The notes below the pieces were generated by a model. The model did no database searches. It was not told where the DNA came from and was given only the letters and a program-made list of their open reading frames with translations. A program made the position numbers and the translations under genes. From contig CAZORP010000003.1 of assembly GCA_964582615.1 (NCBI GenBank), positions 2,091 to 66,090 of the forward strand: DNA of 64,000 bases. Direction: 5' to 3'. Shown piece by piece: positions 1,126 through 54,273 of this stretch. The stretch comes from an uncultured Gammaproteobacteria bacterium. GTDB lineage: Bacteria; Patescibacteriota; Patescibacteriia; UBA9934. Positions within the stretch are counted from its first letter, which is position 1. Each line of letters starts with the position of its first letter.

Positions 1126-2670
1126 ATGCGCGATCCTTTTTCTCAACCAAAAAAACCAGAACAGCTTCGCTTTGAACATTCAGACCATTCCCCTGCAAAT
1201 AAACATCCTGAAATTTTTGAAGGATTTGTTAAGAATTTCTTTAAAGGCGCGGACGCTGAGATGGCCGCCGTGTACCAAGATGCTCTTATTGAGAAATTTA
1301 TTAAAAATTCAAAAATCTTTACAAACTTCATTTTAGGAGACCCCTTCTGGACGAATTGGGCCTTTTCTCGAGAAGATCTCATTCAAGCTTTTGATGACAT
1401 CTTTACCTTGGCAAGTATCTTTGAACGATACAGATCTTCTAACCTCACAACAACTCAATTATCACTCACAGAGCAAGAACTTCGCGCGATCTACACCTAC
1501 AAAAAAACACTTTTCTTCTTCGATTGTACATTACAAAAAAACGTGCATTCGAGTGCACGCGAAAGAATGAGGAACTTCTTCTTAAATTTTATCAAAAACC
1601 AACATCAACCGCATAAGGAAAATATTGCCAAGATTTTTAAATGCAAACCCGATGAGGTAAGCACTGATCTCAACGGTTTTTTTCAAGGAAGTAAAGTTCA
1701 CTTTGGAGATCTTGCCATCGCCGAAGTCTCATTGGTAAACAATAATACTCACGCGGAACATTCCTCTACCTATAGACAAAAAAGCCCATTTGCACGCACA
1801 ATTCTAGGAGATGTCTCCTTTGCCCCCAGGGGGTTACTCAATGAGAGCATGCGTATTTCTGCAAGAGACCTTTTTTCTGATGTTTTTCAAGATGCAATAA
1901 TTTACGGATCTTCGAAAATAGCATTCAGCTACCCGTTCGAGACGTCTTCAAATCTCTCAAGACATACATCATTCACACTTTTTGGCCAATATCTCGATAT
2001 CTCATTTTCTTCGCAAGCGAAAGAAATGCTCTCTGTACGGGGCTTTTGTTCAAACACCACTCTAGCACTTTCTCTCCAGCATGAAGGTGCGGTTTTTAAT
2101 CTACAAAACTTCTCGACACACTCACTCGCATCCCTCACAACGTTATCACACGTCATTCTTCCAGCGAGCACCGTAAATAATGCTGCCATTCTCTTTGAAA
2201 AGAGTAACAATCTTCCAAAGGCAAGGAGTCTGTCAGTAGTATTTTTTGAGGAAAGCCTCAGCGAACCTCTTAATCTACAAAATAGCATCACAGAATTTCA
2301 CGCCGAAAATCTGCATGATCTTCGAAATATCTCACTCCCATCACAACTCGAGAGTCTTACGCTTGGAATTACGCAAGCAAAAAATGCATTCTTTCCCCCT
2401 TATCTTAAAAAACTAGACCTTCCCAAGCTCACAACCCTTGAAGGTCTCTTACTTCCACCACACGCAGAATTCACATCTAATACCGCCATTAAAACACTCA
2501 TCTCAACAGCGAAGACACAAGGCAGGGATATCTTACAAGAGTGCCGAGATGCATGGATGAAAGAGTATCAAACAACGAGATTTGATGGGGTCTATCCAGA
2601 CGAGGAAGGCGCCATACCTGAACACATTCCACTTCTCCAACCTTTACGCTCAAAACCCGGGCAAATATAA
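1126..2670 (+). CDS. Hypothetical LRR-like protein (514 aa), second tandem paralog
   Basis: A long ORF whose C-terminal ~120 aa are nearly identical in motif order to the C-terminus of ORF 18..1100 (LTLGITQAKNAFFPPYLKKLDLPKLTTLEGLLLPPHA, then GRDILQECRDAWMKEYQTTRFDGVYPDEEG). Leucine-rich-repeat-like segments. No signal peptide is evident. Confidence 0.6.
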   Translation: MRDPFSQPKKPEQLRFEHSDHSPANKHPEIFEGFVKNFFKGADAEMAAVYQDALIEKFIKNSKIFTNFILGDPFWTNWAFSREDLIQAFDDIFTLASIFERYRSSNLTTTQLSLTEQELRAIYTYKKTLFFFDCTLQKNVHSSARERMRNFFLNFIKNQHQPHKENIAKIFKCKPDEVSTDLNGFFQGSKVHFGDLAIAEVSLVNNNTHAEHSSTYRQKSPFARTILGDVSFAPRGLLNESMRISARDLFSDVFQDAIIYGSSKIAFSYPFETSSNLSRHTSFTLFGQYLDISFSSQAKEMLSVRGFCSNTTLALSLQHEGAVFNLQNFSTHSLASLTTLSHVILPASTVNNAAILFEKSNNLPKARSLSVVFFEESLSEPLNLQNSITEFHAENLHDLRNISLPSQLESLTLGITQAKNAFFPPYLKKLDLPKLTTLEGLLLPPHAEFTSNTAIKTLISTAKTQGRDILQECRDAWMKEYQTTRFDGVYPDEEGAIPEHIPLLQPLRSKPGQI

Positions 2671-2815: not shown

Positions 2816-3241
2816 ATGGCAAAGAAAATCAAAGCCATTTTGAAGGTGCAGGCAATTGGTGGCGCAGCTACCCCAGCACCACCACTTGGTCCGGTACTTG
2901 GTCAGCAAGGTGTACCAATTCAACAGTTCGTATTGGAATTTAACGCCGCAACGCAAGATCGTCGCGGTGAAGTCGTTCCTGCGGTTATCACCGTGTACGA
3001 AGATCGAACATTTTCGTTCATCCTCAAAACCGCTCCTGCGTCTGAACTCATTAAAAAAGAGCTCGGAATCAAAACAGGATCCGGAAAGCCAAACCAAGAA
3101 AAGCTTGGAAAGCTTACCAAGGAACAGCTCAAGCGTGTTGCTGAAAAGAAACTTCCCGACCTCAATACCAAGGACGTTGCAAAGGCAATGAAGATCATTG
3201 CAGGAACTGCACGTCAAATGGGTGTTGATGTCGAGGTATAA
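2816..3241 (+). CDS. rplK: 50S ribosomal protein L11
   Basis: MAKKIKAILKVQAIGGAATPAPPLGPVLGQQGVPIQQF is canonical L11 N-terminal sequence, at 141 aa. A TTGACG-17-CATACT promoter-like element lies at 2717-2745. Confidence 0.95.
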   Translation: MAKKIKAILKVQAIGGAATPAPPLGPVLGQQGVPIQQFVLEFNAATQDRRGEVVPAVITVYEDRTFSFILKTAPASELIKKELGIKTGSGKPNQEKLGKLTKEQLKRVAEKKLPDLNTKDVAKAMKIIAGTARQMGVDVEV

Positions 3242-3269
3242 TCTTCACATCACTCATCATCCTTTCTCT

Positions 3270-3683
3270 ATGGCACTTTCATCATCTCGCCCGGGAACGT
3301 CACTCATTCTGCGCATGTACTTTGCCGTCATCGCAGCAGTAACGCTCTTTACGCTCATGTTTGGTGCCATAAACCTTCTCACCGTTGGCTTGCGAATGAT
3401 CATTCCCGGAGCAAACCAACCCGAGTGGGGCCTCGAAGATTGCAACATTACTACCCCACGGTACGATGTTCCAACCGTCGACGGCGAAAGTGTTCCTGTA
3501 ACTTCTCCAGAAGAACTCAAAGCATCATGCGAAGCACGAAATGCGGATGTTCTTAAAAACTGGAAGAGTCAACAACTTAGCGAGCTCGTTCAAGATATCG
3601 CGCTCTTCATTGTTTCGCTTCCTCTCTTTGTCGTACACTTCCGAGTTGTCTACAAAGACTGGAAAAAGGAACACGAAGATTAA
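3270..3683 (+). CDS. Hypothetical small membrane protein in the unusually long rplK-rplA spacer
   Basis: A 161-aa ORF (137 aa from the internal Met at 3270) with two hydrophobic segments (AVIAAVTLFTLMFGAINLLTVGL and IALFIVSLPLFVVHF). It fills the 487-nt gap between rplK and rplA. No homology is recognised, and there is an antisense ORF competitor. Confidence 0.35.
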   Translation: MALSSSRPGTSLILRMYFAVIAAVTLFTLMFGAINLLTVGLRMIIPGANQPEWGLEDCNITTPRYDVPTVDGESVPVTSPEELKASCEARNADVLKNWKSQQLSELVQDIALFIVSLPLFVVHFRVVYKDWKKEHED

Positions 3684-4403: not shown

Positions 4404-4416
4404 AAATCCCCATAAA

Positions 4417-4452
4417 AACAGCCTCATTACGAGGTTGTTTTTATTTTTCTCC
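4417..4452 (+). terminator. Rho-independent terminator after rplA
   Basis: AACAGCCTC-ATTAC-GAGGTTGTT is a 9-bp stem with one G-U pair, followed by TTTATTTTT. Confidence 0.6.
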
Positions 4453-4529: not shown

Positions 4530-5636
4530 ATGGACTTCTCAACGCTTTCGGGGGCATTAGCGTATCAACACATTCGGTCACTCATTGATGCTCGACATAT
4601 CTTTGGAGCATCGCCAACACACCTTCAGCCCTCCTCCCTAGACCTCAGCCTCTCCCAGGAAATTTACCGCATGCGAGGATCGTATCTTCCAAGAACTGGT
4701 GAACGTGTCCGCACCCTTATTAAAGAAGGTTCTCTTTACGAAACCTCATTTAATGAACCCCTCGAACTCAACAGTATCTACTTAGTTCGCCTTAACGAAA
4801 CCCTCGTTCTTCCACCTTCCATTTACGCTTTTACCAATAACAAGTCCTCAACGGGAAGAGTCAACCTCCAAACACGCCTGCTCCTCGATGGCGTAAGCGC
4901 TTTTGACAGTATCCCCGCAGGTTACACCGGCGAGCTTTGGCTTGAAATTATTCCAAAATCTTTTCCTGTAAAACTCTGTCCCGGGGAACGACTCAATCAA
5001 ATTCGATTCTTCGCTTCAGATACACGACTAAGCACCGAAGAGCACCTTCAATTTCATGCCGAAGAAGGATTTCTCTTTGATGCTCAACAAAAAAAGGTCT
5101 TCTCACCTCAACACGCACGAGCATCAGGAATCACCATGTCAATTGATCTTACATCACAAGATATCATTGGCTACGTATGCAGACCAACAAATGGGAAGGT
5201 TCTTGACTATCAACGAAGGGACTACGCTTCACACGACTTTTTTTCTCCCATTTTTCGAACAAAAAAAGAAGAACTTGTTCTTCAGAAAGAAGACTTTTAT
5301 ATTCTCGTTACCAAGGAAGGTATTCGCGTACCTCCTCACTACGCCGTTGAGATGGCGCCGTATGACGTAGGAAAGGGTGAATTTAGAAGTCATTATGCGG
5401 GCTTTTTTGATCCCGGATTTGGCTATCGTGCAGATGGAAGTGTCATGGGAAGTCCGGCAGTTCTTGAAGTCTTCACCCATGATAACGATTTCATTCTCAG
5501 AGATGGCCAGCCGATTTGTACTATGGTGTACGAAAAACTCTCCGCACTACCTGAGGTATGCTACGGAGAGCAGGGTTTGGGAAGTAACTACTTTGCCCAG
5601 CGAGGACCAAAGCTTAGTAAGCATTTTTCCTCCTAA
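4530..5636 (+). CDS. dcd: Long-form 2'-deoxycytidine 5'-triphosphate deaminase (DCD, PF06559-like)
   Basis: A 368-aa protein with the architecture of the approximately 360-aa dCTP deaminase family, not the short dut-like Dcd. It is placed with thyX, dut and tmk. Confidence 0.6.
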   Translation: MDFSTLSGALAYQHIRSLIDARHIFGASPTHLQPSSLDLSLSQEIYRMRGSYLPRTGERVRTLIKEGSLYETSFNEPLELNSIYLVRLNETLVLPPSIYAFTNNKSSTGRVNLQTRLLLDGVSAFDSIPAGYTGELWLEIIPKSFPVKLCPGERLNQIRFFASDTRLSTEEHLQFHAEEGFLFDAQQKKVFSPQHARASGITMSIDLTSQDIIGYVCRPTNGKVLDYQRRDYASHDFFSPIFRTKKEELVLQKEDFYILVTKEGIRVPPHYAVEMAPYDVGKGEFRSHYAGFFDPGFGYRADGSVMGSPAVLEVFTHDNDFILRDGQPICTMVYEKLSALPEVCYGEQGLGSNYFAQRGPKLSKHFSS

Positions 5637-7477
5637 GCAAGGCCTTTTTCAAGAAGCTTCTGCGACTGACGAGCTTCTGCGGCGGCGCGTGCCCAAGGAT
5701 ATTCTTGATAATCAACAAATTGCAAAAGACCAGCATCTTGTATCCATGGCGCACGTTCATGGATACTCGTTGTCATTTTCTGACATATTCTTCGATAGTC
5801 AGGATGGCCTTGAGGGATGGTTCGTAGCTCAAGAAGATGCTGTGCTTCACGAAGAGAAAATCCCATGGTAAATCGGATATGATGTCCAAAAAGCACGCAA
5901 TACTGTGCAAGTTCCGCACCAAAATCCTTCTCAAGTGCGCGATAGAGCTCCTTAACTTCAGCAACAAGAGCCCAAACCTCTCCCCCACGACCAAGAGCCT
6001 TAATATCTTCAGGAAGTGTGAAGCCTAAAAATGGCTGAAGATATTGGCGCTGTTGCGTGAGAATTCTGTGACGATGGAGGTCACGAAAGACTCCAAAATT
6101 TGCCACAATATCAAATGTGCATGCATATCCATGTTCCCATCCTCGACCATAGCGATCTCGTCGAGAGGTACGAGAAGAGAAATCGCGAAGACGCTGAAGA
6201 AGGATCTCTACGGTGTCTTTCTTGAGACGCTCCACTATTTGAGAAAATGAGACTCGTGCAAAAGGAAAGTACAGTGATGCGAGAATGTGTGCCATACCAT
6301 CCCTCCCCGACTGTAAAAGATTTGGGATATCCAGAGGAACAACCTCTTCTTCAGCGTGTTCAGAAAATATCAAGAACTCGGGATAGTGCTCAAGAAGGTG
6401 ATTTTTTGCAACTTTTTCTTCATTTTTTGCAAGAATATCACCATTAGGAGATGCTCGCTTAACATACTTTGGAATAAGCTCGTTAAGTGTCGAGTGAAGA
6501 CGCTGTCCAATATCTTGGTACTCGTGCATATCTTCATGACTATATAGCCGCTTAAGCAGGTGTTCGTACGTGCGACCATTTGCCACCATGGCAAGATTCG
6601 TCAGCGTTGCGGCGGGAAGCACGACACGGGCAGTATCACATGCTCGCGTCTTAATATCGAACTTATATACTCGTCGAAATTCCTTTTGTTCTTTTTCTTC
6701 GGTCAAATCTGCGAGTTTATAGAGCGTTTTATCTTGTGGCTTTACCGCGTACTCAGCTTGATCGAGAGGCTTAAGTGTTTCGTAATGCACCACTAATTCA
6801 TCAACAAGCTTGGTGTACAACAAGAATGCTCGATCGAGCACGCGCTCATACGCTTCCCCGTGCGAGGAAGCCATAATGCGGGGATCTCGATAATACGCAA
6901 ACTTTCCCGTGACTAAATCACGATCATTGTACACGATATATCGACTGGACTGCTCAATAAAGCTTCCCAATCGACGATCTTCAATGAGTTTTGACGCGAG
7001 ATTACTTACCGAGTTAAAAAGCACCGTTGCCGTTTCAAGCTCCTGAACCGAATCGTCACCGTACTGCAAAAGAATGCGTTCAATGATTTCATCAAGCTTT
7101 TTTACCTTCAACTCTCCAACGGGAATACCGAGCTTTTCACTTTCTTCAGGAGTTTGCACGAGAAACTCATTAACCAATACGTCAACGACTGTACCCTGAG
7201 CACGAGACTGTCGAGCAAGCATGGCGCCCGTCAATCCCGAAAGCTTCTTAGTATTTACCGCGGTAACCGTGCTTGTTGGCGTAATAAATGCCGCCGAAGC
7301 CGCAAGATCGTATCCTTGCTTCTTGAGTGTTGCACGATACGGAAGCGTGACGCCATCGCCATACGCAACAACCTGCTCCTGCTGAATGGATCCATCTTGC
7401 AGATAGGTTTCAAGGGCAAATGTAGCTAAACGATCATCTTCACCAATCTTATGAACGCGAGAATTTTCATGAGGCAT
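5633..7477 (-). CDS. thyX: FAD-dependent thymidylate synthase ThyX, long tandem-domain form
   Basis: 614 aa. The C-terminal half carries RHRILTQQRQY (RHR of the ThyX motif) and GHHIRFTMGFSLREAQHLLELR. The N-terminal half has a second ThyX-like fold (SSRYIVY, ARVVLPAATLTNLAMVANGRTYEHL) with a degenerate RHR (EDRRLGSF). The gene converges on dcd with a 4-nt overlap. Confidence 0.7.
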   Translation of the reverse strand: MPHENSRVHKIGEDDRLATFALETYLQDGSIQQEQVVAYGDGVTLPYRATLKKQGYDLAASAAFITPTSTVTAVNTKKLSGLTGAMLARQSRAQGTVVDVLVNEFLVQTPEESEKLGIPVGELKVKKLDEIIERILLQYGDDSVQELETATVLFNSVSNLASKLIEDRRLGSFIEQSSRYIVYNDRDLVTGKFAYYRDPRIMASSHGEAYERVLDRAFLLYTKLVDELVVHYETLKPLDQAEYAVKPQDKTLYKLADLTEEKEQKEFRRVYKFDIKTRACDTARVVLPAATLTNLAMVANGRTYEHLLKRLYSHEDMHEYQDIGQRLHSTLNELIPKYVKRASPNGDILAKNEEKVAKNHLLEHYPEFLIFSEHAEEEVVPLDIPNLLQSGRDGMAHILASLYFPFARVSFSQIVERLKKDTVEILLQRLRDFSSRTSRRDRYGRGWEHGYACTFDIVANFGVFRDLHRHRILTQQRQYLQPFLGFTLPEDIKALGRGGEVWALVAEVKELYRALEKDFGAELAQYCVLFGHHIRFTMGFSLREAQHLLELRTIPQGHPDYRRICQKMTTSIHERAPWIQDAGLLQFVDYQEYPWARAAAEARQSQKLLEKGLA

Positions 7478-7579
7478 AGAGCATGAGTTGTTGCGACTGT
7501 ACGAGGAGCCTGTCCTTCGGTCAAACCTCTGTGTGGATAGGACATTGCAAAAGTTTCCTTACCTGAGAAAATATCCCAT

Positions 7580-8014
7580 ATGGAACTCCCCTTTCGTCGT
7601 CTCTCGCCCCATGCATCTTTGCCAACGTATCAAACCGAAGGATCTCTAGGTTTTGACATTGCAATCCTCGAATCCGTCACCTTACAACCTCAGGAACGTG
7701 CACGCTGTAGAACCGGACTTTGTGTTGCGGTACCAAAGGGATATGGTCTTTTTCTTTTTTCTCGATCAAGTGGCGGCAAACGAGGAATCATCCTCGCGAA
7801 TAGCGTTGGTGTTATCGATAGCGACTACTGCGGGCCAAACGATGAAATCCTCCTTATGCTGTACAATATTTCTCAAGAATCTCTAACCATCCAAGCTGGA
7901 GAACGCGTCGCACAAGGCGTTCTTCTTCCCGTTGCACAAGCTCGTATCATCGAGCCAGAGTCGTGGGAAGCCAACCGTGACCGTGGAGGCTTTGGAAGTA
8001 CCGGGCTACTATGA
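7580..8014 (+). CDS. dut: dUTP diphosphatase
   Basis: 144 aa. GSLGFDIAI, RSSGGKRGIILANSVGVIDSDYCG and the C-terminal RGGFGSTG are dUTPase motifs. Confidence 0.9.
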   Translation: MELPFRRLSPHASLPTYQTEGSLGFDIAILESVTLQPQERARCRTGLCVAVPKGYGLFLFSRSSGGKRGIILANSVGVIDSDYCGPNDEILLMLYNISQESLTIQAGERVAQGVLLPVAQARIIEPESWEANRDRGGFGSTGLL

Positions 8015-8712
8015 AACATCTCATGATTGACGGCATTGGTGGAAGCGGAAAAACGACTATCGTTCGAGCTTTTGTAGAACATCTTAAACAACAAGGAAAA
8101 TCCGTTTTTATTCTTGAGGATTTTGAAAAACAACACCATGCCCTACCCCAAGAACACGACTGGGAACACGCCGATGTACTCTGGATTGCAGAGCCAACAA
8201 AGTCATGGACGGGATCAGCGATTCGAGGAGAGCTTCTTCGTAAAGACCTTCCCTACGATCCAAAGCTTGTCGCCATCGCCTTCGCCGTAGATCGTGCCGC
8301 ACTCTACACTCGCATCGTACTTCCAGCACGTAATCGCGGAAAAATCATTCTTCATGAGCGAGGAGTATACACCTCAATCGCCTATCAGGGAGCAATGCCC
8401 GGAGGCTACTCTCGGGACGCTATCGCTCAGCTTCCCGGAAACTCCCTTGCACTTGCCCATCCTCCAGAAATCCTTATCGTCTGCGATCCTGGCGGCGTTG
8501 ATGCGGGACTTGAACGGCTCGCCATTCGAAATGACCATCGCCTTGGCGTAGCGGGAGAACGAGAACTCCTTCAGGCGGCACATACATGGTTCACAGAAAC
8601 TGCCCCCACATATTTCGCACAAACTTCCTGTACATATCGTATACTCTCTACGGCACTCCCCAAAGAAGACGCAATCTCTCAAGGTATTACCCTTTTTTCC
8701 TCTCTTTTATGA
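8011..8712 (+). CDS. tmk: Thymidylate kinase
   Basis: P-loop DGIGGSGKTT and the tmk-type ERGVYTSIAYQGA (DRY..S..AYQ) motif. The gene overlaps the dut stop. Confidence 0.75.
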   Translation: MKHLMIDGIGGSGKTTIVRAFVEHLKQQGKSVFILEDFEKQHHALPQEHDWEHADVLWIAEPTKSWTGSAIRGELLRKDLPYDPKLVAIAFAVDRAALYTRIVLPARNRGKIILHERGVYTSIAYQGAMPGGYSRDAIAQLPGNSLALAHPPEILIVCDPGGVDAGLERLAIRNDHRLGVAGERELLQAAHTWFTETAPTYFAQTSCTYRILSTALPKEDAISQGITLFSSLL

Positions 8713-9563
8713 AAACCCCCATCACACTTGGCAACCTCATCGATACCTCCTTCCATCATTACACAACCTTTCTCCCAGAACTTCTTGGAATATCGCTTTG
8801 GCTTCTTGTTGCACAAATTCCCAGCGCACTAGGAACCCTTCTAAGCTCAGAAGGTGTTGATCTTTCATGGATGACCATTGCGTCGTTTTCTTTAAACGCT
8901 CTCGGCTTTATTGGAACGGTTCTTGTAAGCATTCACGTGGGTGTCGCGCTCATTCTTGCCATCTCACAACAACGAACAGGTGTCCACATCGATCCACGAG
9001 CTATGCTTCGTGAAGCTTTCGCGAAAGATCTCTCCTACACCTGGGCATCAATACTCCAAGCCCTCGCTCCAATTGGAACCGTGCTCATTCCTCTTTGTAT
9101 CGCTCTTGTATTGGGCTTTATAGCGAGCTCGCTTCCCACGAAAGGATCTTTCGTGAATGCCCTTGGCATTTTTAGCATCTTTGGAGGAATTATTGCTGCA
9201 CTCGTAGGAGCGATTATTGTTTCTGTTCGCTATACATTTACTCCCTTTACCAACGTCATCGAAGGAAAGCGAGGTCTTGCGGCATTGCGAGGAAGTCGCG
9301 AGCTCGTTGAGGGATCCTGGTGGAGCGTTGCTATTAATACTTTTATTCCAAGTCTTCTTTACACCATTCTTTTTGCAACCGTCCTTGGCATTCTTGCGTG
9401 GATTTCGGGAAGCTTTGCACTCATGTTCTCTCAGAATAGCTTCCTTATCGCAAAACTCACTTCAATATTCAATTTATTCATCTTTACCCTAGGACAAAGC
9501 CTTATCACCCCCCTTCTTCTTATCACCTCCTTTGTTTTGTATGAAAACCGACGATCTCGCTAA
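8709..9563 (+). CDS. Polytopic membrane protein, first of two tandem paralogs
   Basis: The start overlaps the tmk stop as ATGA. The protein has multiple TM helices and no recognisable catalytic motif. Confidence 0.55.
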   Translation: MKTPITLGNLIDTSFHHYTTFLPELLGISLWLLVAQIPSALGTLLSSEGVDLSWMTIASFSLNALGFIGTVLVSIHVGVALILAISQQRTGVHIDPRAMLREAFAKDLSYTWASILQALAPIGTVLIPLCIALVLGFIASSLPTKGSFVNALGIFSIFGGIIAALVGAIIVSVRYTFTPFTNVIEGKRGLAALRGSRELVEGSWWSVAINTFIPSLLYTILFATVLGILAWISGSFALMFSQNSFLIAKLTSIFNLFIFTLGQSLITPLLLITSFVLYENRRSR

Positions 9564-10290
9564 GCGTGGATCAGGGATTCCGGGAACACTCACAATCCTT
9601 GAGCGCATCGCTCCCCTGATTAAACAGCACTACCTTCTCCTTGCGGGGTATTCAGCATGGTGCATGATTCCTGCGTTTGTAACTTTTTTTGGATCGTTTG
9701 CCTCGGAGAATATCCAAGGATTCCTTGAATCTTTAGCACTCATCGCCGACCTCTCACTTACCGCTTGGGTTACCGGTGCACTGACCATTATTGGCCATGC
9801 GGCACTCACCAAAGAGCCGCTTCCATCGGAAGAAGTTATCAGCTCAAAAACCCAGGAACACTACGTTCCTGCACTGCAAGGATTCCTCCTCACCACACTT
9901 CTTATACCCATAGGACTTCTACTCCTTATACTCCCCGGAATCGCCATCATGTTACTGACGATATTCTTCATTCCCGTTATCTATCTCGAACAAGGGCACA
10001 CCTGGAAAACCGCGCTTCTGCGATCAAAAGATATCGTCATGCAGGCACCCTTTTCTTTTGCAATGAGCATGCTTGGCATGACACTACTCACGGGCACTGC
10101 ATACATAGTTCTCGTGGGAATCTCCGGAATCTTGCTCACCTACGGACTTCATGTCCCATTTCTTAGCCTCCTTCAAGAGGCCGAGCAACCCGCATGGCTC
10201 TCACTGCTCCTGAACGCCCTATTCATTCCCCTCATGCCGTTTTCAGCGTTCTTTGTAACCGCTCTTTACGAAGAGGTAAAAAACCGATAA
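9532..10290 (+). CDS. Polytopic membrane protein, paralog of 8709..9563
   Basis: Similar length, hydropathy pattern and charged C-terminus (YEEVKNR versus YENRRSR). It overlaps the end of the upstream gene. Confidence 0.55.
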   Translation: MFCMKTDDLAKRGSGIPGTLTILERIAPLIKQHYLLLAGYSAWCMIPAFVTFFGSFASENIQGFLESLALIADLSLTAWVTGALTIIGHAALTKEPLPSEEVISSKTQEHYVPALQGFLLTTLLIPIGLLLLILPGIAIMLLTIFFIPVIYLEQGHTWKTALLRSKDIVMQAPFSFAMSMLGMTLLTGTAYIVLVGISGILLTYGLHVPFLSLLQEAEQPAWLSLLLNALFIPLMPFSAFFVTALYEEVKNR

Positions 10291-10298
10291 TCTCGGGC

Positions 10299-11756
10299 CA
10301 TATGGAGCTTATTCCCGTCATTGGAATTGAAACACACATTCAACTTGCAACTGCAAGCAAGCTCTTTTGTAGTTGCCCAAAAAGCGACGCACAACTTCCC
10401 AACGTTCACACGTGTCCCATTTGTCTTGGCCATCCAGGAACGCTCCCTGTAGTAAATATCGAGGCTGTACGATCGGCGCTTCGCCTTGGTCATGCCCTCA
10501 AGGGAAACCTTGCATCCGTACTTAAATTCGACAGAAAGCACTACACCTATCCCGATCTTTCAAAGTCTTACCAAATCTCACAGTACGATATTCCCATCAT
10601 GGAACACGGAAGTTTGCATTTCATGGATGACGCGGGAAATCCATGTACTGTCACTATTGAACGCCTTCATCTTGAAGAAGATGCGGGAAAGAACATTCAT
10701 GATGCTTCGGGGGTTACCTATGTTGATTTCTCGCGAGGAGGATCTCCTCTGTGTGAAATTGTCACAGGTCCAGACTTTCACAAGGCTGAACACGCTAAAC
10801 GCTACGCGCAAGAACTTAGACTTCTTGCAAGAATGCTTGGCGTATCCGAGGGTGATATGGAAAAAGGCCATCTTCGCTGTGATGTAAATATTTCTCTGCG
10901 CGAACAACTGCCAGGAGGAACCCTCGGACCACTCATGCCAAAGACTGAAATCAAAAACATCAACTCCTTCCGAGCTATAGAACGTGCAATTCTTTACGAA
11001 ATCGAACGGCAGACCGATCTCTGGAACGCAGGAACTCCACCCCTCCAATCAACAACGCGTAGCTGGAATGATGATGCAGGAGTAACCGAACTTCGACGCG
11101 AAAAAGAAACAAGCGCGGATTATCGCTACCTTCCCGAACCAGACCTTCCTGTACAGTCACTTGCTCGCCTTCGTGAAGAAGTATGCGCGCATACTTTTAA
11201 AACTCCAGAGGAAGCTCGCACCGACATGATGCGGACCTATGAAATCAGTCGAGATGACGCAGATCGTCTCCTTGAGCGAAAACCGTGGCTTGAACTCTTC
11301 CAGCAAACCGCACCACTGCTAAGCACGGATGCAAAACCGCTCCTTGCACCATGGATTCTCACCAAACTTGCAGGAATTCTTGATGAGTACAAAAAAACCG
11401 AGGAGGCGTTCCCTAAGCCATCCGAATTTGGAGAACTTCTTGAAGACATTGCAAAGCACACATGCACTCCAGCAAAGGGACGGGAAATTCTCGAATATCT
11501 CGTTCAACGTCCTGAATCACCTTACGCTCAAGCAAAATCAGCATGCGGCGTGGAAAAGCCGTCGCAGGAGCGCCTCCAAGCGACAATTCAGGAAGTTTTA
11601 CACAAACATCCAGAAGAAGTTCTTCGCTACCGCCAAGGAGAAACAAAACTTCTCGCATTCTTCCTTGGTCAGGTTATGAAGGCAACCCAAGGCAATGCTC
11701 CGGCCCAAGAAACAAAAACCATTCTTCTTCACGAGCTAACAAAAACATCCTCATAA
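10299..11756 (+). CDS. gatB: Asp-tRNA(Asn)/Glu-tRNA(Gln) amidotransferase subunit B
   Basis: MELIPVIGIETHIQLATASKLFCSCP...CPICLGHPGTLP is the GatB N-terminus. The internal Met at 10299 is used as the start. No gatA or gatC is adjacent. Confidence 0.9.
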   Translation, partial: HMELIPVIGIETHIQLATASKLFCSCPKSDAQLPNVHTCPICLGHPGTLPVVNIEAVRSALRLGHALKGNLASVLKFDRKHYTYPDLSKSYQISQYDIPIMEHGSLHFMDDAGNPCTVTIERLHLEEDAGKNIHDASGVTYVDFSRGGSPLCEIVTGPDFHKAEHAKRYAQELRLLARMLGVSEGDMEKGHLRCDVNISLREQLPGGTLGPLMPKTEIKNINSFRAIERAILYEIERQTDLWNAGTPPLQSTTRSWNDDAGVTELRREKETSADYRYLPEPDLPVQSLARLREEVCAHTFKTPEEARTDMMRTYEISRDDADRLLERKPWLELFQQTAPLLSTDAKPLLAPWILTKLAGILDEYKKTEEAFPKPSEFGELLEDIAKHTCTPAKGREILEYLVQRPESPYAQAKSACGVEKPSQERLQATIQEVLHKHPEEVLRYRQGETKLLAFFLGQVMKATQGNAPAQETKTILLHELTKTSS

Positions 11757-11770
11757 GAGGATGTTTTTAT
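11746..11770. terminator. Bidirectional hairpin terminator between gatB and the convergent gene
   Basis: CATCCTC-ATAA-GAGGATG flanked by an A-run upstream and a T-run downstream. It overlaps both stop codons. Confidence 0.55.
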
Positions 11771-12825
11771 GTATTATCACGCAATTTATCAAGTGCCTCG
11801 CGAAGATCTCTCTGTTTAACGAGCGCAAAGAATGTTTGCTTGGAAGAAAGCCCTCCCCCCTCAAGAGATGCGTCAATCTTTCTTAGCTCAGCAAGAAGCA
11901 TTCGTGCCGTGTCGCGCCTCTTAAAATCACCCACACGAGATGACGATGCTCTGTCTGGAGCATCGTGGAGTCCCTTGAGATTTTCTCGAGTTTCTTCTTC
12001 AATTTCCTGAACGGGAACCGTGGAAGCTTCTTGTCGAGAAAGAAGCTCTATATGCTGTCTGGCTTGCGCAAGACGAACATCGACATCACGCAATGCAAGC
12101 TCAATCTCGCGATATTTGAATGGAGAAAACCACGATGACGTAAGTGCCTTTCGCTTTTCAAGCCCAGCGCGCTCTTGACGAAGTTCGTCAAATCGTTGGG
12201 TGTAAAATACCAGCTCACGACCTCCAGACTGTTGCTCATGAAGTTTGCGAGATAGCGCCTCAACGTGCTCGCGAACAATGTCTGTCTTTTGTGTTGGGGT
12301 TGCAGTCCCTTGCGATGCGCGACGCTCGTAAGAAAGTTTCTTCTGTGAAGGTGTATCTATTTTTCCCGTAAGAAATTCTTCCTGTAGGCTATGAATTTTT
12401 AAATTCGCAAGTCCCAATTCCACACGATGCTTTGTAAGAAGCGCTTCGTAGTGATCTTTAAGTCGTCGCGTCTTTGGAAGGAATCGAGCAAACCATCCCC
12501 CAGTCTCTTGATTGCGTTCTTTGGTAATTTCGGCAATTGCACGCTCATGAACAACAACCGCTTCACGAAGCTGAGAGATCTCCAAGGATATCTCTCTCCG
12601 ACGTGCATCTTGAGAATTCTTCGCCGACATTGCGCCGTCTATGTCGCGAATGGATTTTTGGATGCGTTCCGTGGGAGTAACTTCACGGCTCATCATTCCT
12701 TCGCGTGGTGCGCCTATCTTACGAGCATCTTGAGGCCTATTGCGAACAACTCCGCCATCACCCATGCCCTCCTTGTGATTGCGGTGGATATATAGGAGCT
12801 CCCACAAAGTCAAATCCTCGCTCAT
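11767..12825 (-). CDS. Hypothetical coiled-coil protein
   Basis: 352 aa, highly charged, heptad-like (ELALRDVDVRLAQARQHIELLSRQ). No enzymatic motif. Likely co-transcribed with miaA. Confidence 0.5.
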   Translation of the reverse strand: MSEDLTLWELLYIHRNHKEGMGDGGVVRNRPQDARKIGAPREGMMSREVTPTERIQKSIRDIDGAMSAKNSQDARRREISLEISQLREAVVVHERAIAEITKERNQETGGWFARFLPKTRRLKDHYEALLTKHRVELGLANLKIHSLQEEFLTGKIDTPSQKKLSYERRASQGTATPTQKTDIVREHVEALSRKLHEQQSGGRELVFYTQRFDELRQERAGLEKRKALTSSWFSPFKYREIELALRDVDVRLAQARQHIELLSRQEASTVPVQEIEEETRENLKGLHDAPDRASSSRVGDFKRRDTARMLLAELRKIDASLEGGGLSSKQTFFALVKQRDLREALDKLRDNT

Positions 12826-12920: not shown

Positions 12921-13880
12921 TCACCCAACATATGCTGTTGTTAAAAATTTTTCAAGAAGAACATCTGCTTCGTAGGCGTTTGCAACCCACGTAATTCGAG
13001 GATCTCGCCGAAACCACGTACGCTGACGTTTGGCATACTGTCGAGAATCTCGCTTTATTTGTAGTATAGCATCCTTTAGGGACACTTCCTTTCTTAGGAA
13101 TGCACAGATTTGTCGGTAGCCAATTCCTGTCATGCCGGGTGCATCATCGCCGTACCTATCGCGAAGGTTGCGAACCTCATCAACAAGACCGCGGGCAATC
13201 ATGAGATCTACACGCTCATCAATACTTGCATCGCTGAGGGTTTTTTCCTTATCAATGCCAAGAAAAAGTGAATGGTATCGCTCGGGATTTCTTGTTTGAA
13301 CTTCCGCTAAACGCCTGCCTGTAACCCGCAAAATCTCAATTGCACGCTCAAGTCTTCTGCGGTTGTGCACATCAATTTTTTCAGCCGTATCAGGATCTCG
13401 TTCAGCGATTTCTTCAAGGAGCTCCTCATTTGTTTTTTCAAGAAGCTCACGTCGCAATCCAGGATCTGGAGGAGCGGCGCCAAACGAGGGTCTATCAATA
13501 ACCGCGGCGATATAAAGCCCCGTTCCACCAACAAGAAATGGAAGCTTTCCGCGCCGATCCATGTCATCAATTTTTGCATCTGCGTACGCTTGAAAATCCG
13601 ATGCGGTAAAAATTTCATCCGGATTACAAAGATCAAACCCCCAATGTGCAACGCCGTCAACCAAAAGTGGTTTTTCTTTCACAAGATCTTCTAAGCTTTC
13701 ACCTCCCATCTTTCGAAGACCCTCAGGCTTTGCAGTACCAATATCCATGCCGCGATATATTGTTCGTGAATCCGCGGAAATGACCTCGCCCTCATGCGAT
13801 CGGGCAAGTGTAATGCCAAGTTGCGTCTTTCCAGATGCCGTTGGTCCAACGACAACCACAACGCGAGGAAGTTCTGCCAT
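12921..13880 (-). CDS. miaA: tRNA dimethylallyltransferase
   Basis: VVVVGPTASGKTQLGITLA...EVISADSRTIYRGMDIGTAKP is the MiaA P-loop N-terminus. Confidence 0.9.
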   Translation of the reverse strand: MAELPRVVVVVGPTASGKTQLGITLARSHEGEVISADSRTIYRGMDIGTAKPEGLRKMGGESLEDLVKEKPLLVDGVAHWGFDLCNPDEIFTASDFQAYADAKIDDMDRRGKLPFLVGGTGLYIAAVIDRPSFGAAPPDPGLRRELLEKTNEELLEEIAERDPDTAEKIDVHNRRRLERAIEILRVTGRRLAEVQTRNPERYHSLFLGIDKEKTLSDASIDERVDLMIARGLVDEVRNLRDRYGDDAPGMTGIGYRQICAFLRKEVSLKDAILQIKRDSRQYAKRQRTWFRRDPRITWVANAYEADVLLEKFLTTAYVG

Positions 13881-13973
13881 ATGCGCATAGTATACTGGAG
13901 ATCTATGGTAAGAGAAGTACCCAACATACGATCACCCCGCGGCCGTGAAAAACCGGATATCGAAAATCAAACC

Positions 13974-15347
13974 ATGCAGGACACCCACCTGCAACCTCAG
14001 GAAGACGCCTGGTTTTCTCAAGATCCCCAAGAATATCCGGAAGCTCCAGAGCTTCCCTCTTGGTACGGAAAGGATCAATTTGCAACACTTGCCGAAGAAA
14101 GTGGAAAAATTCTCAAAGGAGGAGCTCGTGCTCTCAACTTAATGCCCGGCAAGGAGCACGACGCCTACGCTCAAAACATCAAAGACCTTCCAAAGTCTTT
14201 TCTTGAAGCTCCAAAGGATATTCTCAAAGCAATTCATGCACGGCTATTTGAACAATCGCTAAATAAAACCCAAATAAAGCTTGGTGCCGTAATTAGCGAG
14301 GAGGTACGCGCAATAAAGCCAAAGTCAGAACTTTTAGGGCGCGTTCTTTCTGTCGCACGCGAGACTCTAAAAACTGCTCCAAGCTTTTTTGAGGCTAGTG
14401 GATTGCAAGATCTCGCACAGGAACACCTCCGTATTGGAAAGGGAATTTTTGGGGCAGTTTTTCAGAAAAATACCGAGGATCCCTATGTGCAAAAAGCTCG
14501 GGAAATTCCTGGAATGCTACGGGAAACGGCAAGAGATTTTCTTCCAATGCTTTTAGATCAACTTGCAAACGCACCGCAAGACCTTCAAAGAATATTTCAA
14601 GATCCACTAGCAAACTCTTCACTTCTCGAAGAACGCATGAAAGACATGCCGTCGGAAGAATCCTTCGCCGTAACAACTCCCGCAGAACGCACACTCGAAG
14701 AAACTCTTCACGATCTACAAACGTGCGCAGAAGAAACTCGCGCGCTTGCCATTGGAGTAAAGCTTGAAGCCAAGAATCTCGAGCTCGAACATACTCGTTT
14801 TTTCTCACGCCAATGCCGAAGCCTTCTTGAGCAACGAATGCGCCGTCTTATACATGAAGCAGGAGCATCAACACAACGCATACAAGAAACGTTGAATGAA
14901 CTTGAAGAAAAGATTTCCTCAGCAACCGCTATTGAAGGCGTCGAGGAGGTGCTCATAAATCTTCAAAAAGAACTCTTGGCGCACGAAAAGCGCGAGGATC
15001 TTGCCATACGCTACTACGCTGAACATCTCTCCCAGCGTATCCTCAAACTTCCCGAGGGTGTGTTAACAAAAAAAGAGGCTTTTCTCTTTGCAGAAAAACT
15101 TCAAAACAATCCAAATCAAGAAACACTCAAAGAGCTTCAACAAAATCTCGAGGAATATATCGCTTTTCTTTACACACAAGAAACTTCAACAAAAACTCCC
15201 GAGGAGGTGGAACTCCTTCAGGAAGACCTTCAACGGAACATTGCGCTTTTTGAAACCATAGCAACCGCAAAACTTCGCGGAGCAAGCAGGCGCATTCAAG
15301 AACACCTCGCAACAGGCGCGAGAAATCTCATGCGTATCGCCTCATGA
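13974..15347 (+). CDS. Hypothetical alpha-helical coiled-coil protein
   Basis: A long ORF divergent from miaA. The start was chosen at the internal Met (MQDTHLQ), because the upstream 60 aa are Arg- and Cys-rich and low-complexity. No recognisable domain. Confidence 0.45.
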   Translation: MQDTHLQPQEDAWFSQDPQEYPEAPELPSWYGKDQFATLAEESGKILKGGARALNLMPGKEHDAYAQNIKDLPKSFLEAPKDILKAIHARLFEQSLNKTQIKLGAVISEEVRAIKPKSELLGRVLSVARETLKTAPSFFEASGLQDLAQEHLRIGKGIFGAVFQKNTEDPYVQKAREIPGMLRETARDFLPMLLDQLANAPQDLQRIFQDPLANSSLLEERMKDMPSEESFAVTTPAERTLEETLHDLQTCAEETRALAIGVKLEAKNLELEHTRFFSRQCRSLLEQRMRRLIHEAGASTQRIQETLNELEEKISSATAIEGVEEVLINLQKELLAHEKREDLAIRYYAEHLSQRILKLPEGVLTKKEAFLFAEKLQNNPNQETLKELQQNLEEYIAFLYTQETSTKTPEEVELLQEDLQRNIALFETIATAKLRGASRRIQEHLATGARNLMRIAS

Positions 15348-17335: not shown

Positions 17336-18607
17336 CTACGGGGCAGTTTCCTCACCCTGAGGATCCCCACCTCCCTGCTCCTGCTCTTTAATTTCAATAC
17401 TAATATGATCTTCGAGTGTTGGGACTCGCTGAAGCCAGAATGGTGTGAACGTAATAGCAACATCAGCAACAGCGTCCGACGATCGGAGCAAGGTGAATAC
17501 CTCGTGGGGAGCTCTACCAATAAATCGCTCTTTCGCAAGCGTTGGAGCATCCTCAGAAATAAGCGCCTCCCCTTCTAGGTACACCGAAAGCTCAGCTTCA
17601 CCTTTTTGAGTATCAACCGAGGCAATACTTGTCTGTACACCCTGATCACTGAGACGCTCCAAGAGAAAACCTTCCGGTATTCGCTTTTGAAGGAGTGATT
17701 TTGCGTATGATCCAACGAGATTCGTGTCATAAAAAACCCCCGTAACATCAGCGGTCATACTCAACGTAAAGCCACCAGCTTCAGAGCCAAGCGCAACGTC
17801 GGTAGTAGAAGAGACTTCATGGATATCGTATGTTCCTTGATTTACCAATTCCGCAGAAACGCCCTGCTGAAGCTCTTGCTTTCCCGCCGCAAGAATCTCT
17901 TCACGAAGAGCGAGCGTCGCATCATGAACATCTTGCTCAGAAAGCGTGCGAACATATTGCACGCCACCATGAAATGCCTCCTGAGAAACTCCATAAATAA
18001 GACTCTGAAGCGATGTTGCGAGTCCGGGGATCGTAAACGTTGTTGCGGCAATATCTCCAGAACTTCCCGCAACATCAGCAACGACAATAACAGAAATCTC
18101 CCCCTGAGCAGGAACGGTTACGTTATCCTTCAATCGAAAAAGAACGCCGTTTTGAGCAAGAAAACGCGTTGTTGCCACAAGCGGCTGGGGGCTATTTGTA
18201 GTATTTTTAACAACTACTGTTCCTGTTGATTTTCCCTCAATAGCTCGAGCGCCTTCTTGAGGAAGTGAAAAGTATCGCTCACGCGTAAGTGTCTTTTTTG
18301 CAACAAAGCCAGCAATTTGTCCATCGGAAAGCGGCTGAGTAACAACTTCAAGCGTTGCCGTGGTGGAAACCGATGTCGGCTTTGCGAAGACCGTAATGTT
18401 TGCTCGAGAAACTGAAAGATACAACACGACAAAAAGCATGAGAAACGTGAGGCCAACAAACGCAAGTGCAATTCGTTGATACATACGCAACGACCTTGTA
18501 AGCGGCCGCTGAAGCGATGGCGACGATACCATAAAAAAAGCCTGGTAAGGATTCTTGGTAAAGTATAGCATCTTTTTTGAGGTTTTCTTTTGTAAACCTA
18601 TTTCCAA
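17336..18607 (-). CDS. Hypothetical N-terminally membrane-anchored protein
   Basis: 423 aa. The N-terminal TM segment is IALAFVGLTFLMLFVVLYLSV, followed by a Thr/Ser/Val-rich beta-rich sequence. It overlaps the dnaE stop by 10 nt. Confidence 0.5.
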   Translation of the reverse strand: MEIGLQKKTSKKMLYFTKNPYQAFFMVSSPSLQRPLTRSLRMYQRIALAFVGLTFLMLFVVLYLSVSRANITVFAKPTSVSTTATLEVVTQPLSDGQIAGFVAKKTLTRERYFSLPQEGARAIEGKSTGTVVVKNTTNSPQPLVATTRFLAQNGVLFRLKDNVTVPAQGEISVIVVADVAGSSGDIAATTFTIPGLATSLQSLIYGVSQEAFHGGVQYVRTLSEQDVHDATLALREEILAAGKQELQQGVSAELVNQGTYDIHEVSSTTDVALGSEAGGFTLSMTADVTGVFYDTNLVGSYAKSLLQKRIPEGFLLERLSDQGVQTSIASVDTQKGEAELSVYLEGEALISEDAPTLAKERFIGRAPHEVFTLLRSSDAVADVAITFTPFWLQRVPTLEDHISIEIKEQEQGGGDPQGEETAP

Positions 18608-51641: not shown

Positions 51642-52955
51642 CTATGGTCGCAAACGCTGAACGTCACGAGGGAAAATCGTCGCTTCTTTTACATTTGCAA
51701 GCCCAAGAAGGTTCTGCGTCAACCGTTGAAGACCCATACCAAAACCACCCTCGGGAGGAATGCCGTACTTGTGCATCATGAGGTAGTCCTCGAACTGTGC
51801 AGGATCTAATTCCTTATCTTTAATTGCCTGCACCTGGTCATCATAGCGATTCACGCGCATGCCGCCTGAAATAATCTCACTGCCAAAACCAATAAGGTCA
51901 AACGTGATAGTATTTTCAGGATTTTTTGGATCACGCAACGCATAAAATGGACGCTTCTTGGTTGGATAATCCGTAACAACAATAAAGCCACACTGATAAT
52001 GCTTTGGACCCCAAACTGTTGAAAGCCAACGCTCCCCCGCCGGAGAAAGATCCGGTTCATGCGTTTCATCAACGCCACCCTCTTCTTTGTACGCAAGAAG
52101 TGCATCTTTCAAAGAAATTCTTGGGAATCGAGTTCCAAGCGGAGGAAGTGTTACCCCAAGCAATGCAAGCTCTCGAGCACAATCGCGCTCAACCGTCGCA
52201 ACCATCTCCCGAATAGATCCCTCGGCATGCGAAACGACTTCATCCATGTCTTCAACAAAACCCATCTCAAATTCTAATTGATTAAACTCCGTGAGGTGGC
52301 GCGATGTCGCAAACTTCTCAGCGCGAAATGAGTACGAAACTCCATACACACCTTCATATACTCCCATGGTGATTTGCTTGTACAGCTGTGCCGACTGCGT
52401 AAGCGTCGCTTCGCGTCCGTAGTAGTCAACCTTAAAAAATTCCGCACCGCCTTCGCTTGCCGCGCCTGCAAGAATAGGAAACATAATTTCCGTGAAGCCC
52501 TGACGCTCCATATATGCACGGTACCCCTTTACAAGCGCCGCTTGCACTTTAAAAATCGCGCGTTGTTTTGGGTGGCGAAGTGTAACAACACGATTATCGA
52601 GGAGCGTTTCAAGCTGAACATCAATATCCGGCTTTGCAATTTCAACAGGAACCGGCTCGGTTACCGGAGAGAGAATTTCAAGCTCAGTACACTGAACTTC
52701 CGCTTCTTTAACCGAAGGATCTTTTGACTGCTTTTCTTTGACTAGCCCTTTGACTTTAATAACCGTCTCCAATTGCAATCCCTTCAATTGCTCAAGATGC
52801 GTCGCTTCCAAAACAACCTGCGCAATTCCCGTTCGATCACGAAGGAGTGCAAAACCAAAATGTTTTTTATCGCGCAAGTTTGAAAGCCAACCCGCAAGAA
52901 TCACTTCTTGACCAAGAAATTCAGGAAGTTGAGCGGCGAGTATTCTATTTTTCAT
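51642..52955 (-). CDS. aspS: Aspartyl-tRNA synthetase, archaeal/eukaryal type (class IIb)
   Basis: An OB-fold anticodon-binding N-terminus, class II motifs, and the C-terminal GGFGMGLQRL...IFPRDVQRLRP characteristic of archaeal-type AspRS. Start set at MKNRIL. Confidence 0.75.
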   Translation of the reverse strand: MKNRILAAQLPEFLGQEVILAGWLSNLRDKKHFGFALLRDRTGIAQVVLEATHLEQLKGLQLETVIKVKGLVKEKQSKDPSVKEAEVQCTELEILSPVTEPVPVEIAKPDIDVQLETLLDNRVVTLRHPKQRAIFKVQAALVKGYRAYMERQGFTEIMFPILAGAASEGGAEFFKVDYYGREATLTQSAQLYKQITMGVYEGVYGVSYSFRAEKFATSRHLTEFNQLEFEMGFVEDMDEVVSHAEGSIREMVATVERDCARELALLGVTLPPLGTRFPRISLKDALLAYKEEGGVDETHEPDLSPAGERWLSTVWGPKHYQCGFIVVTDYPTKKRPFYALRDPKNPENTITFDLIGFGSEIISGGMRVNRYDDQVQAIKDKELDPAQFEDYLMMHKYGIPPEGGFGMGLQRLTQNLLGLANVKEATIFPRDVQRLRP

Positions 52956-52971
52956 AGGTATATAAGAAAAA

Positions 52972-54273
52972 TTATGGTCGGTTTCTGTTAAGCATTCTTG
53001 CAAACGGAATCGTTTCACGAATGTGATGCACGCCGGTAATCCAACGAACCGTACGCTCGAGTCCAATGCCAAACCCACTGTGAGGCACAGATCCAAACTT
53101 TCTTGTATTCAAGTACCATTCGTATTCTTCAAGGGGATAACCTCGGTCAATAATTTCCTGACGCAACTGCTCGTAGTCTTCATTGCGCTGACTGCCTCCA
53201 ATAATCTCCCTTCCCTCTTCCGGCGCAATAAGATCAGCGCACCTTGCGCGAAGAACTCCAGCATCATCCGTGAAGCGCTTCATATAAAACGCTTTTACCG
53301 CCGCAGGATAATCCGTAATAAAGACGGGTAACTTATACTTTTCACCCAAGTAAATCTCCTCCTCTGTACTCATGTCATCAAGTGCATCTACCGCGAGTCC
53401 ATCGGCGGCAAGTTCAGCCTTTACTTCGGCATGCGTCTTGCGAATAAACGGCGTGCTCACAAGATTCTCCAAGATCGTTGTATCACGTCCAAGAATTGCT
53501 AACTCAACACGACAGTCACGCAAAACATCTCCAACAATTCTCTTCACCATGCGCTCCTGCACGTCCATGTTCATGACCTGATCGTAAAACGCCATTTCCG
53601 CATCCATCATCCAAAGTTCGCTCAGGTGATGACGAGTCTTGCTCTTTTCAGCTCGAAATACAGGACCAAAGTCGTATACTTTTCCAAAGCCCATAATTCC
53701 CGCCTCACTGTAAAGCTGGCCGGACTGCGAAAGATACATTGGCGTACCGTAGTAATCTACCGTAAAAAGTTGCGTGGTATCTTCGCAACTCGTTGGCTGA
53801 AGAACGGGCGTATCAAAGCGAATGAATCCTTCTTCATGAAAAAACTGCTCAATCGAAAAGAATACTCGATCACGAATGCGAAGAACCGCCCAAGGCGTCT
53901 GTGAACGAAGATAAAGATCTCGATTATCAAAAAGAAACTCGGGACCGTGTTCTTTTTTTCCAATAGGATATTCTTCGGTATTGATGTGTACGGGAATAAT
54001 CATCGTTCCCTGAATTTCATATCCCCCCTGTGCACGAGGCTCTTCCTTTACATATCCACGAACCTCAACCGAAGACTCAAGGGTTAAACTCTTAAGCTGA
54101 TCCCACATTTCCGGAGCAAGATCATGCGCGCTAAAAACCACTTGAACAAAACCGGAACCATCACGAAGCTGAAGGAAGTAAATTTTTCCACTTGAACGGA
54201 AGTTATATGCCCACCCCTTCAAATGCACCTCTTTTCCAACAGCATCTTTTAACTGTCGTATTGTTGTATACAT
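52972..54273 (-). CDS. asnS: Asparaginyl-tRNA synthetase
   Basis: The C-terminus VPHSGFGIGLERTVRWITGVHHIRETIPFARMLNRNRP closely matches the AsnRS terminus. 433 aa, class IIb. Confidence 0.8.
   Translation of the reverse strand: MYTTIRQLKDAVGKEVHLKGWAYNFRSSGKIYFLQLRDGSGFVQVVFSAHDLAPEMWDQLKSLTLESSVEVRGYVKEEPRAQGGYEIQGTMIIPVHINTEEYPIGKKEHGPEFLFDNRDLYLRSQTPWAVLRIRDRVFFSIEQFFHEEGFIRFDTPVLQPTSCEDTTQLFTVDYYGTPMYLSQSGQLYSEAGIMGFGKVYDFGPVFRAEKSKTRHHLSELWMMDAEMAFYDQVMNMDVQERMVKRIVGDVLRDCRVELAILGRDTTILENLVSTPFIRKTHAEVKAELAADGLAVDALDDMSTEEEIYLGEKYKLPVFITDYPAAVKAFYMKRFTDDAGVLRARCADLIAPEEGREIIGGSQRNEDYEQLRQEIIDRGYPLEEYEWYLNTRKFGSVPHSGFGIGLERTVRWITGVHHIRETIPFARMLNRNRP

Follow-up and report, generated by a model that had tools for sequence, protein, structure and literature searches.

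We analysed a 64,000-nucleotide stretch of contig CAZORP010000003.1, hereafter the window, in which four consecutive genes at positions 4530-8712 (dcd, thyX, dut and tmk) encode the route from deoxycytidine triphosphate (dCTP) to deoxythymidine diphosphate (dTDP). The flavin-dependent thymidylate synthase ThyX encoded there is 614 residues long and genuinely consists of two ThyX folds in tandem. Judged by the residues they carry, the N-terminal and C-terminal halves (N half and C half) are complementary rather than one live and one dead, the active-site motifs of a canonical ThyX being divided between them. We consider it likely that the locus is a vertically inherited chromosomal cluster for deoxythymidine triphosphate (dTTP) precursors, in which the tandem ThyX with its complementary halves acts as a pseudo-tetramer of two chains. 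The four genes are as follows.

4530-5636, plus strand: dcd, long-form two-domain dCTP deaminase, 368 residues
5633-7477, minus strand: thyX, tandem-domain flavin-dependent thymidylate synthase, 614 residues
7580-8014, plus strand: dut, trimeric-type dUTPase, 144 residues
8011-8712, plus strand: tmk, divergent thymidylate kinase, 233 residues, P-loop GIGGSGKTT

The tandem architecture of ThyX is immediately apparent in domain searches. The whole protein scores 115 bits against the Pfam Thy1 model (PF02511; cut-off 24.8) and matches it in two stretches; scanned alone, the N half (residues 1-347) returns Thy1 with E=4.6e-17 (62.9 bits, residues 122-336) and the C half (residues 348-614) with E=4.2e-15 (56.5 bits, residues 428-578). 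The AlphaFold2 monomer model, with a predicted local distance difference test score (pLDDT) of 91.6 and a predicted template modelling score (pTM) of 0.91, is a single confident two-domain model that has the ThyX fold; its only low-confidence segment is residues 140-147, the GDDS loop. An earlier note on this DNA had proposed a fusion of two ThyX folds and had called for a double PF02511 parse and a structure prediction. Both now agree with it, and the concern that the N half might be unrelated to ThyX is laid to rest by the score of that half, well above the Pfam cut-off. The parts of the protein map onto the DNA as follows.

7283-7477, minus strand: N-terminal extension, residues 1-65; four beta strands and a helix, pLDDT around 90-95
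6443-7282, minus strand: N-half Thy1 domain, residues 66-345; ARxSR, GDDS, DRR, EQSSRY, R284 and N300/R302 motifs
6323-6442, minus strand: inter-domain linker, residues 346-385; mostly helical (H348-363, H366-369), poorly conserved
5636-6322, minus strand: C-half Thy1 domain, residues 386-614; RHR, R543 and R552, without the Ser/Arg/Tyr loop and R147; hhalign E=2.9e-5
6971-6979, minus strand: codons D167-R168-R169, the N-half RHR position, with the first Arg and the His lost
6938-6955, minus strand: codons E175-Q-S177-S-R179-Y180, the dUMP-binding and lid loop, found in the N half only
6065-6073, minus strand: codons R469-H470-R471, the ThyX RHR motif, found in the C half only

Canonical ThyX enzymes possess four active sites, each of which is built from three subunits (PMC6514825). 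Subunit A contributes the RHR motif, which binds the phosphates, ribityl chain and flavin of flavin adenine dinucleotide (FAD), together with the equivalent of Thermotoga maritima (Tm) R174, which binds deoxyuridine monophosphate (dUMP); subunit C contributes a Ser/Arg loop and a lid Tyr, by which dUMP is bound and the reacting atoms are capped; and subunit B contributes a Ser/Thr (Tm T55) and the equivalent of Tm R165, both of which bind FAD (PMC6514825). A division of labour between subunits A and B has likewise been described for the PBCV-1 ThyX (PMC3498832), and Ser88 and Tyr91 are reported to be critical for activity (PMC11940539).

To place the window protein on this scheme, we numbered residues by the T. 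maritima ThyX sequence, which is identical to that of PDB 1KQ4/1O26, and aligned each half to it by profile alignment with hhalign. The correspondence is set out line by line.

Tm R78-H79-R80 (RHR): D167-R168-R169 in the N half; R469-H470-R471 in the C half
Tm E86/S88/R90/Y91: E175/S177/R179/Y180 in the N half; variable in the C half
Tm R147: R284 in the N half; Q525 in the C half
Tm R165: R302 in the N half; R543 in the C half
Tm R174: L311 in the N half; R552 in the C half

Every residue retained from the Tm set is invariant among 116 close family members. The division holds when the alignment is widened to 153 tandem ThyX sequences, comprising representatives at 50% identity, Micrarchaeota proteins and one phage protein. 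In the N half, S177 and R179 are present in all 153, R284 in 152, E175 in 151 and Y180 in 150; in the C half, R469 is present in all 153, R471 and R552 in 152 each and H470 in 145. At the reciprocal positions the N-half R174 site is Leu or Met, the C-half R147 site is Gln, and the C-half S88, R90 and Y91 sites are variable; the N-half R78, H79 and R174 positions are not conserved. The contiguous motif RHR-x7-S(-x-R-Y) occurs in neither half, since the N half reads DRR-x5-E-x-S-x-R-Y and the C half has RHR without the S/R/Y that should follow, and the full motif set exists only when both halves are combined.

The earlier note had read this protein as a pseudo-dimer with one degenerate active-site half, having seen that only the C-terminal copy keeps RHR. 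The latter observation holds, and the former does in part: the N half has indeed lost RHR and R174, but it alone keeps E-x-S-x-R-Y and R284, which are gone from the C half. A model in which the N-terminal copy has degenerated into a scaffold without catalytic function, leaving the C-terminal copy as the working half, draws on the confinement of RHR to the C half and on the unconserved R78, H79 and R174 positions of the N half. Yet the equivalents of S88, R90, Y91 and R147 come from the N half only, in 150-153 of the 153 sequences, and the loop among them holds residues that bind dUMP, cap the reacting atoms and are critical for activity in canonical enzymes. C halves alone could not build a site, because the loop residues and R147 are supplied by the N half only, and we consider a dead N half quite improbable.

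From the complementary halves, a structural model for tandem ThyX emerges. After an internal duplication, the two Thy1 domains would have lost complementary parts of the active site. The C half would now give the residues of role A, R469-H470-R471 for the FAD phosphates, ribityl chain and flavin, and R552 for the uracil, and the N half those of role C, namely E175, S177, R179 and the lid Tyr180, plus R284. One chain could not form a complete site, because a C half, an N half and a third domain are needed; and as role A lies only in the C half and role C only in the N half, two chains would have to pair. The result would be a pseudo-tetramer in which two composite sites are complete and two are vestigial, and roles A and C would have to be brought together by an axis relating an N half to a C half. 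We infer this dimer-of-tandems assembly and its number of working sites, as well as the catalytic activity of the protein.

The predicted arrangement departs from that of the canonical homotetrameric enzymes (T. maritima 1O26/1KQ4, M. tuberculosis 2AF6, H. pylori 3AH5, PBCV-1 4FZB). While those possess four identical sites, two composite sites are predicted here, and the window chain has two domains, each with a partial motif set. The window protein also adds a ~50-residue insertion in the N half (around residues 182-245 by comparison with T. maritima ThyX), the 65-residue beta extension, and an exchange of the Tm His53 position for Asp141, which lies in the invariant GDDS loop. The N-terminal extension has no Pfam match and is restricted to the Uhrbacteria-type subfamily of ~600 residues; members of a ~540-residue class align only from query residues ~57-81.

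Several observations weigh against this model or complicate it. The NCBIfam equivalog model for thyX, TIGR02170, scores the protein at 52.4 bits, short of its cut-off of 87.9. Role B is hard to assign: the Tm T55 equivalent, S143, is invariant in the N half alone, while the R165 equivalent is better kept in the C half (R543 in 148 of 153 sequences) than in the N half, where R302 is Arg in 89 and Gln in 61. Strongly conserved residues, R169 of the N half and R543 and D466 of the C half, would face the site that the model calls vestigial, and for this reason that site may not be functionless. Folate and NADPH handling may also differ from that of canonical ThyX, because the folate-stacking Tm His53 is Asp141. 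Finally, the searchable literature yielded no enzymatic data for this ThyX subfamily.

A bolder reading takes up these points. Tandem ThyX proteins could be obligately asymmetric, half-of-sites flavoenzymes in which two of the four pseudo-symmetric pockets make deoxythymidine monophosphate (dTMP), while the other two, with their near-invariant R169, R543 and D466, may have been re-used for a function absent from canonical ThyX, for example as a dedicated NAD(P)H or nucleotide-effector site; folate would perhaps be handled differently, and bacteria of the Candidate Phyla Radiation (CPR) and DPANN archaea would have this design as their standard thymidylate synthase. We put this forward tentatively and think it unlikely to hold as a whole.

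The neighbouring genes support a role for ThyX in thymidylate synthesis. The pathway from dCTP through deoxyuridine triphosphate (dUTP), dUMP and dTMP to dTDP is covered by Dcd, Dut, ThyX and Tmk. In the window, Dcd would deaminate dCTP to dUTP, Dut would hydrolyse dUTP to dUMP, ThyX would methylate dUMP to dTMP with methylenetetrahydrofolate (CH2-THF), FAD and NAD(P)H, and Tmk would phosphorylate dTMP to dTDP. Pfam and NCBIfam assignments of the four products bear out the claim of the earlier note that four consecutive genes span this route, the route itself being taken from the established pathway. Dcd matches Pfam DCD_N, DCD_C and DCD and passes the NCBIfam equivalog PRK07559 at 344 bits (cut-off 283); it shares the two-domain architecture of the long-form dCTP deaminases (PF06559 and PF22569), and matches the only solved long-form enzyme, that of Agrobacterium (PDB 2R9Q), with E=1.7e-77. 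Dut matches the Pfam dUTPase family (PF00692) with E=3.4e-23 and TIGR00576 at 113.6 bits (cut-off 102.55), and carries motif 3 (GVIDSDY) and motif 5 (RGGFGSTG). Tmk scores 57.4 bits against Pfam Thymidylate_kin (PF02223; cut-off 27), with its P-loop at residues 8-16, and falls below the NCBIfam equivalog cut-off (TIGR00041, 62.2 bits against 83.25), which marks it as a divergent member; a Tmk recognised by Pfam lies at the equivalent position in a relative, L003.

These neighbours bear on whether the tandem protein might instead perform another flavin- and folate-dependent pyrimidine modification, such as that of a PolB-like UMP methylase or a hydroxymethylase. A phmmer search of the PDB returned characterised ThyX proteins at E values around 0.6 only, and this, with the missed thyX equivalog cut-off and the exchange of His53 for Asp, would fit such an activity. 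However, the gene stands between the makers of dUMP (dcd, dut) and the consumer of dTMP (tmk), an arrangement kept in many genomes, and all residues with which canonical ThyX contacts dUMP and flavin are present across the two halves. Small CPR and DPANN genomes need a source of thymidylate, and the family is nearly universal among them. In the loci examined no other thymidylate synthase gene was present; DHFR adjoins in some. A different modification enzyme is, in our estimation, very improbable.

The setting of the cluster is shared by its relatives, which show the order gyrB-secE-nusG-rplK-(DUF5671)-rplA-dcd-thyX-dut-tmk-two membrane proteins-gatB-miaA. When the window proteins were compared by tblastn with 85 loci, thyX in the 20 Uhrbacteria-type loci (L006-L025) was accompanied by gatB in 16, dut in 15, rplA in 13 and long-form dcd in 12, and many loci of the ~540-residue class also keep rplK/rplA ... 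thyX ... gatB/miaA. The cluster is a conserved chromosomal block that is vertically inherited and not a mobile module, and the host is probably an Uhrbacteria-like member of the Patescibacteria.

The earlier note had hinted that such gene sets also travel on phages and mobile modification modules, and a phage-derived or mobile island for nucleotide metabolism or modification has some points in its favour. Genes of the dut, thyX and tmk type are known on phages, tandem ThyX itself is encoded by a small number of Microcystis phages, and in the related Uhrbacteria locus L001 the stretch from thyX to dcd contains an IS200-like Y1 transposase gene. Against this, the neighbourhood from rplK and rplA to gatB and miaA is kept across Uhrbacteria and other Patescibacteria. 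The GC content of the region (0.46-0.48) lies within the range across the window (0.42-0.50), and the only tRNA genes of the window are at 48 kb, leaving none within 40 kb of the cluster. The window open reading frames (ORFs) that matched Pfam are housekeeping or envelope and surface genes (thrS, dnaE, xseA, metK, lexA, eno, der, pth, dprA, topA, relA/spoT, parAB and secY among them), with several ORFs unmatched, and the search for a flanking integrase that the note had advised found neither an integrase nor a transposase among the scanned window ORFs. Only 6 of 50,697 phage records match the window ThyX, all of them distant and the best 22-25% identical. We also saw no case in which closely related genomes differ in the presence of the block and direct repeats or an integrase mark its borders. 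The probability that the cluster is a mobile island appears to us close to negligible, and the hint is not upheld.

In L001, the IS200-like transposase gene (10225-10797) sits within a ~4 kb gap between thyX and dcd that also holds several hypothetical genes; the cluster can therefore be interrupted.

Tandem ThyX proteins form a large family. The 614-residue sequence is present in identical form in NCBI (P0001), alongside 355 homologues; those of ~600 residues are 50-70% identical, several of them named Candidatus Uhrbacteria, and the ~540-residue class is ~40% identical. The window ThyX belongs to the longer, Uhrbacteria-type subfamily with its extra N-terminal beta domain. Counting one genome per species, at least 567 species genomes hold relatives, drawn from DPANN archaea and from many lineages of Patescibacteria. 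When 1.84 billion representatives were searched with a profile, 1,021 clusters at 50% identity reached E<=1e-30; of the best 150, nearly all are 500-620 residues long. At least 8,000 members belong to a single Micrarchaeota subfamily. Databases annotate the tandem proteins as FAD-dependent thymidylate synthases. We reject the possibility, raised by the earlier note as a pitfall, that two adjacent thyX genes were joined by an assembly error or a frameshift. Nothing speaks for it but the unusual length, whereas hundreds of full-length homologues of 590-620 and ~540 residues from independent assemblies, the identical NCBI protein and the single confident two-domain model speak against it, and it has practically no chance of being correct. 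Some tandem ThyX representatives are longer still, at 677-781 residues (P0130, P0138, P0184, P0192, P0194, P0203, P0204 and P0221), and most of these have 150-440 extra N-terminal residues before the core.

Tandem ThyX also occurs in cyanophages. Microcystis phage MaMV-CH01 (PP681321.1; L086:3809-5284), which is Ma-LMM01-like, encodes a 491-residue tandem ThyX of about 22% identity to the window protein, whose motif split matches that of the window protein when compared by eye. A Ma-LMM01-type phage protein aligned over its full length in Foldseek (template modelling score 0.65, normalised to the target), and a search for homologues that started from this phage type of tandem ThyX returned 35 matches. 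The CPR, DPANN and Microcystis-phage proteins share full-length homology and an identical motif split with the window ThyX.

Double-length ThyX proteins have been noticed before. The Chlamydia trachomatis ThyX CT632 is reportedly double-length, at ~529 residues, and is said to have been assayed by Griffin et al. in 2005 (J Biol Chem). A duplicated-domain ThyX in Chloroflexi was noted in 2009 as "not characterized" (Valas & Bourne, PMC3224940); by its description, it has two ThyX domains per polypeptide, as in the window protein. In the searchable literature on tandem, duplicated or fused ThyX and on CT632, duplicated ThyX is mentioned only in that paper (PMC3224940), and we found no description there of the complementary motif split or of a tandem-ThyX structure. 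The window locus is thus of a kind already known, and the structural logic of the complementary split is apparently undescribed.

The genes of the cluster are closely packed. As the earlier note had stated, dcd and thyX overlap convergently and dut and tmk overlap, and the sequence gives both overlaps as 4 nt: the dcd stop TAA is at 5634-5636 and the thyX stop TAG is the reverse complement of 5633-5635, and the dut/tmk overlap is an ATGA at 8011-8014. A third ATGA, at 8709-8712, joins the tmk stop to the first of two membrane-protein genes, which probably starts with the ATG at 8709. This gene is in turn overlapped by the second membrane-protein ORF, encoded on the same strand. Because these successive same-strand overlaps join them, dut, tmk and the two membrane-protein genes probably constitute one translationally coupled unit. 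Three further features frame the cluster.

4412-4444, plus strand: terminator-like hairpin 3' of rplA, a 14-pair stem followed by a T run, separating the L11/L1 operon from dcd
7478-7579, between divergent thyX (minus) and dut (plus): intergenic spacer of 102 bp, with one sigma-70-like site on the minus strand, 7524-7496
8709-10290, plus strand: two membrane-protein genes after tmk, weakly GPDPase_memb-like and UPF0259-like

In a promoter scan of the thyX/dut spacer, the sigma-70-like site did not rise above chance and is suggestive only. The membrane-protein pair, which has no obvious link to nucleotide metabolism, recurs in L001-L004, where dut or tmk precedes it and gatB follows.

What occupies the position of the long-form dcd varies among relatives. 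In L003, a short DCD, a dCMP deaminase and a DHFR occupy it (7884-9576), and in the Parcubacteria locus L005 two adjacent short DCD genes do so (4588-5849; 230 and 190 residues). As the genes that supply dUMP differ between relatives at the same position, a history of fission or fusion is suggested for the long-form dcd. Upstream of the syntenic block in L005 (1-1595) is a gyrB with a product of 2,226 residues that holds several intein and LAGLIDADG domains.

Further observations concern the remainder of the window. A small DUF5671 membrane protein is encoded between rplK and rplA (3198-3683, plus strand), an insertion shared by some 10 related Uhrbacteria loci. Two tandem paralogous genes for hypothetical proteins without a Pfam family (18-1100 and 1126-2670, plus strand; 35% identity over 332 residues, E=5e-59) precede rplK, at the place taken by secE and nusG in several relatives; the first of the two may be cut by the window edge. 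At 51642-54273 (minus strand), two adjacent class II aminoacyl-tRNA synthetase paralogues (tRNA-synt_2 with an OB fold; 484 and 433 residues) have overlapping ORF calls. Large ORFs without a Pfam family are interspersed among the housekeeping genes at 40831-44301 (minus strand, 1,156 residues), 13794-15347 (plus strand, 517 residues), 11767-12825 (minus strand, 352 residues) and 17336-18607 (minus strand, 423 residues).

Taken together, the locus itself is ordinary: it illustrates how a compact route from dCTP to dTDP, coupled in part at translation, is maintained in a small CPR genome next to the genes for ribosomal proteins L11 and L1. The wider interest lies in the enzyme: among CPR bacteria and DPANN archaea, tandem ThyX is the thymidylate synthase that dominates, and its thousands of sequences include none with a solved structure. 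The complementary split predicts one FAD and one dUMP site per chain of ~60-70 kDa and an obligate dimer, and would make tandem ThyX a clean example of subfunctionalisation after the internal duplication of a homo-oligomeric enzyme. As ThyX is pursued as an antibacterial target, this structurally distinct subclass may also be of practical interest.

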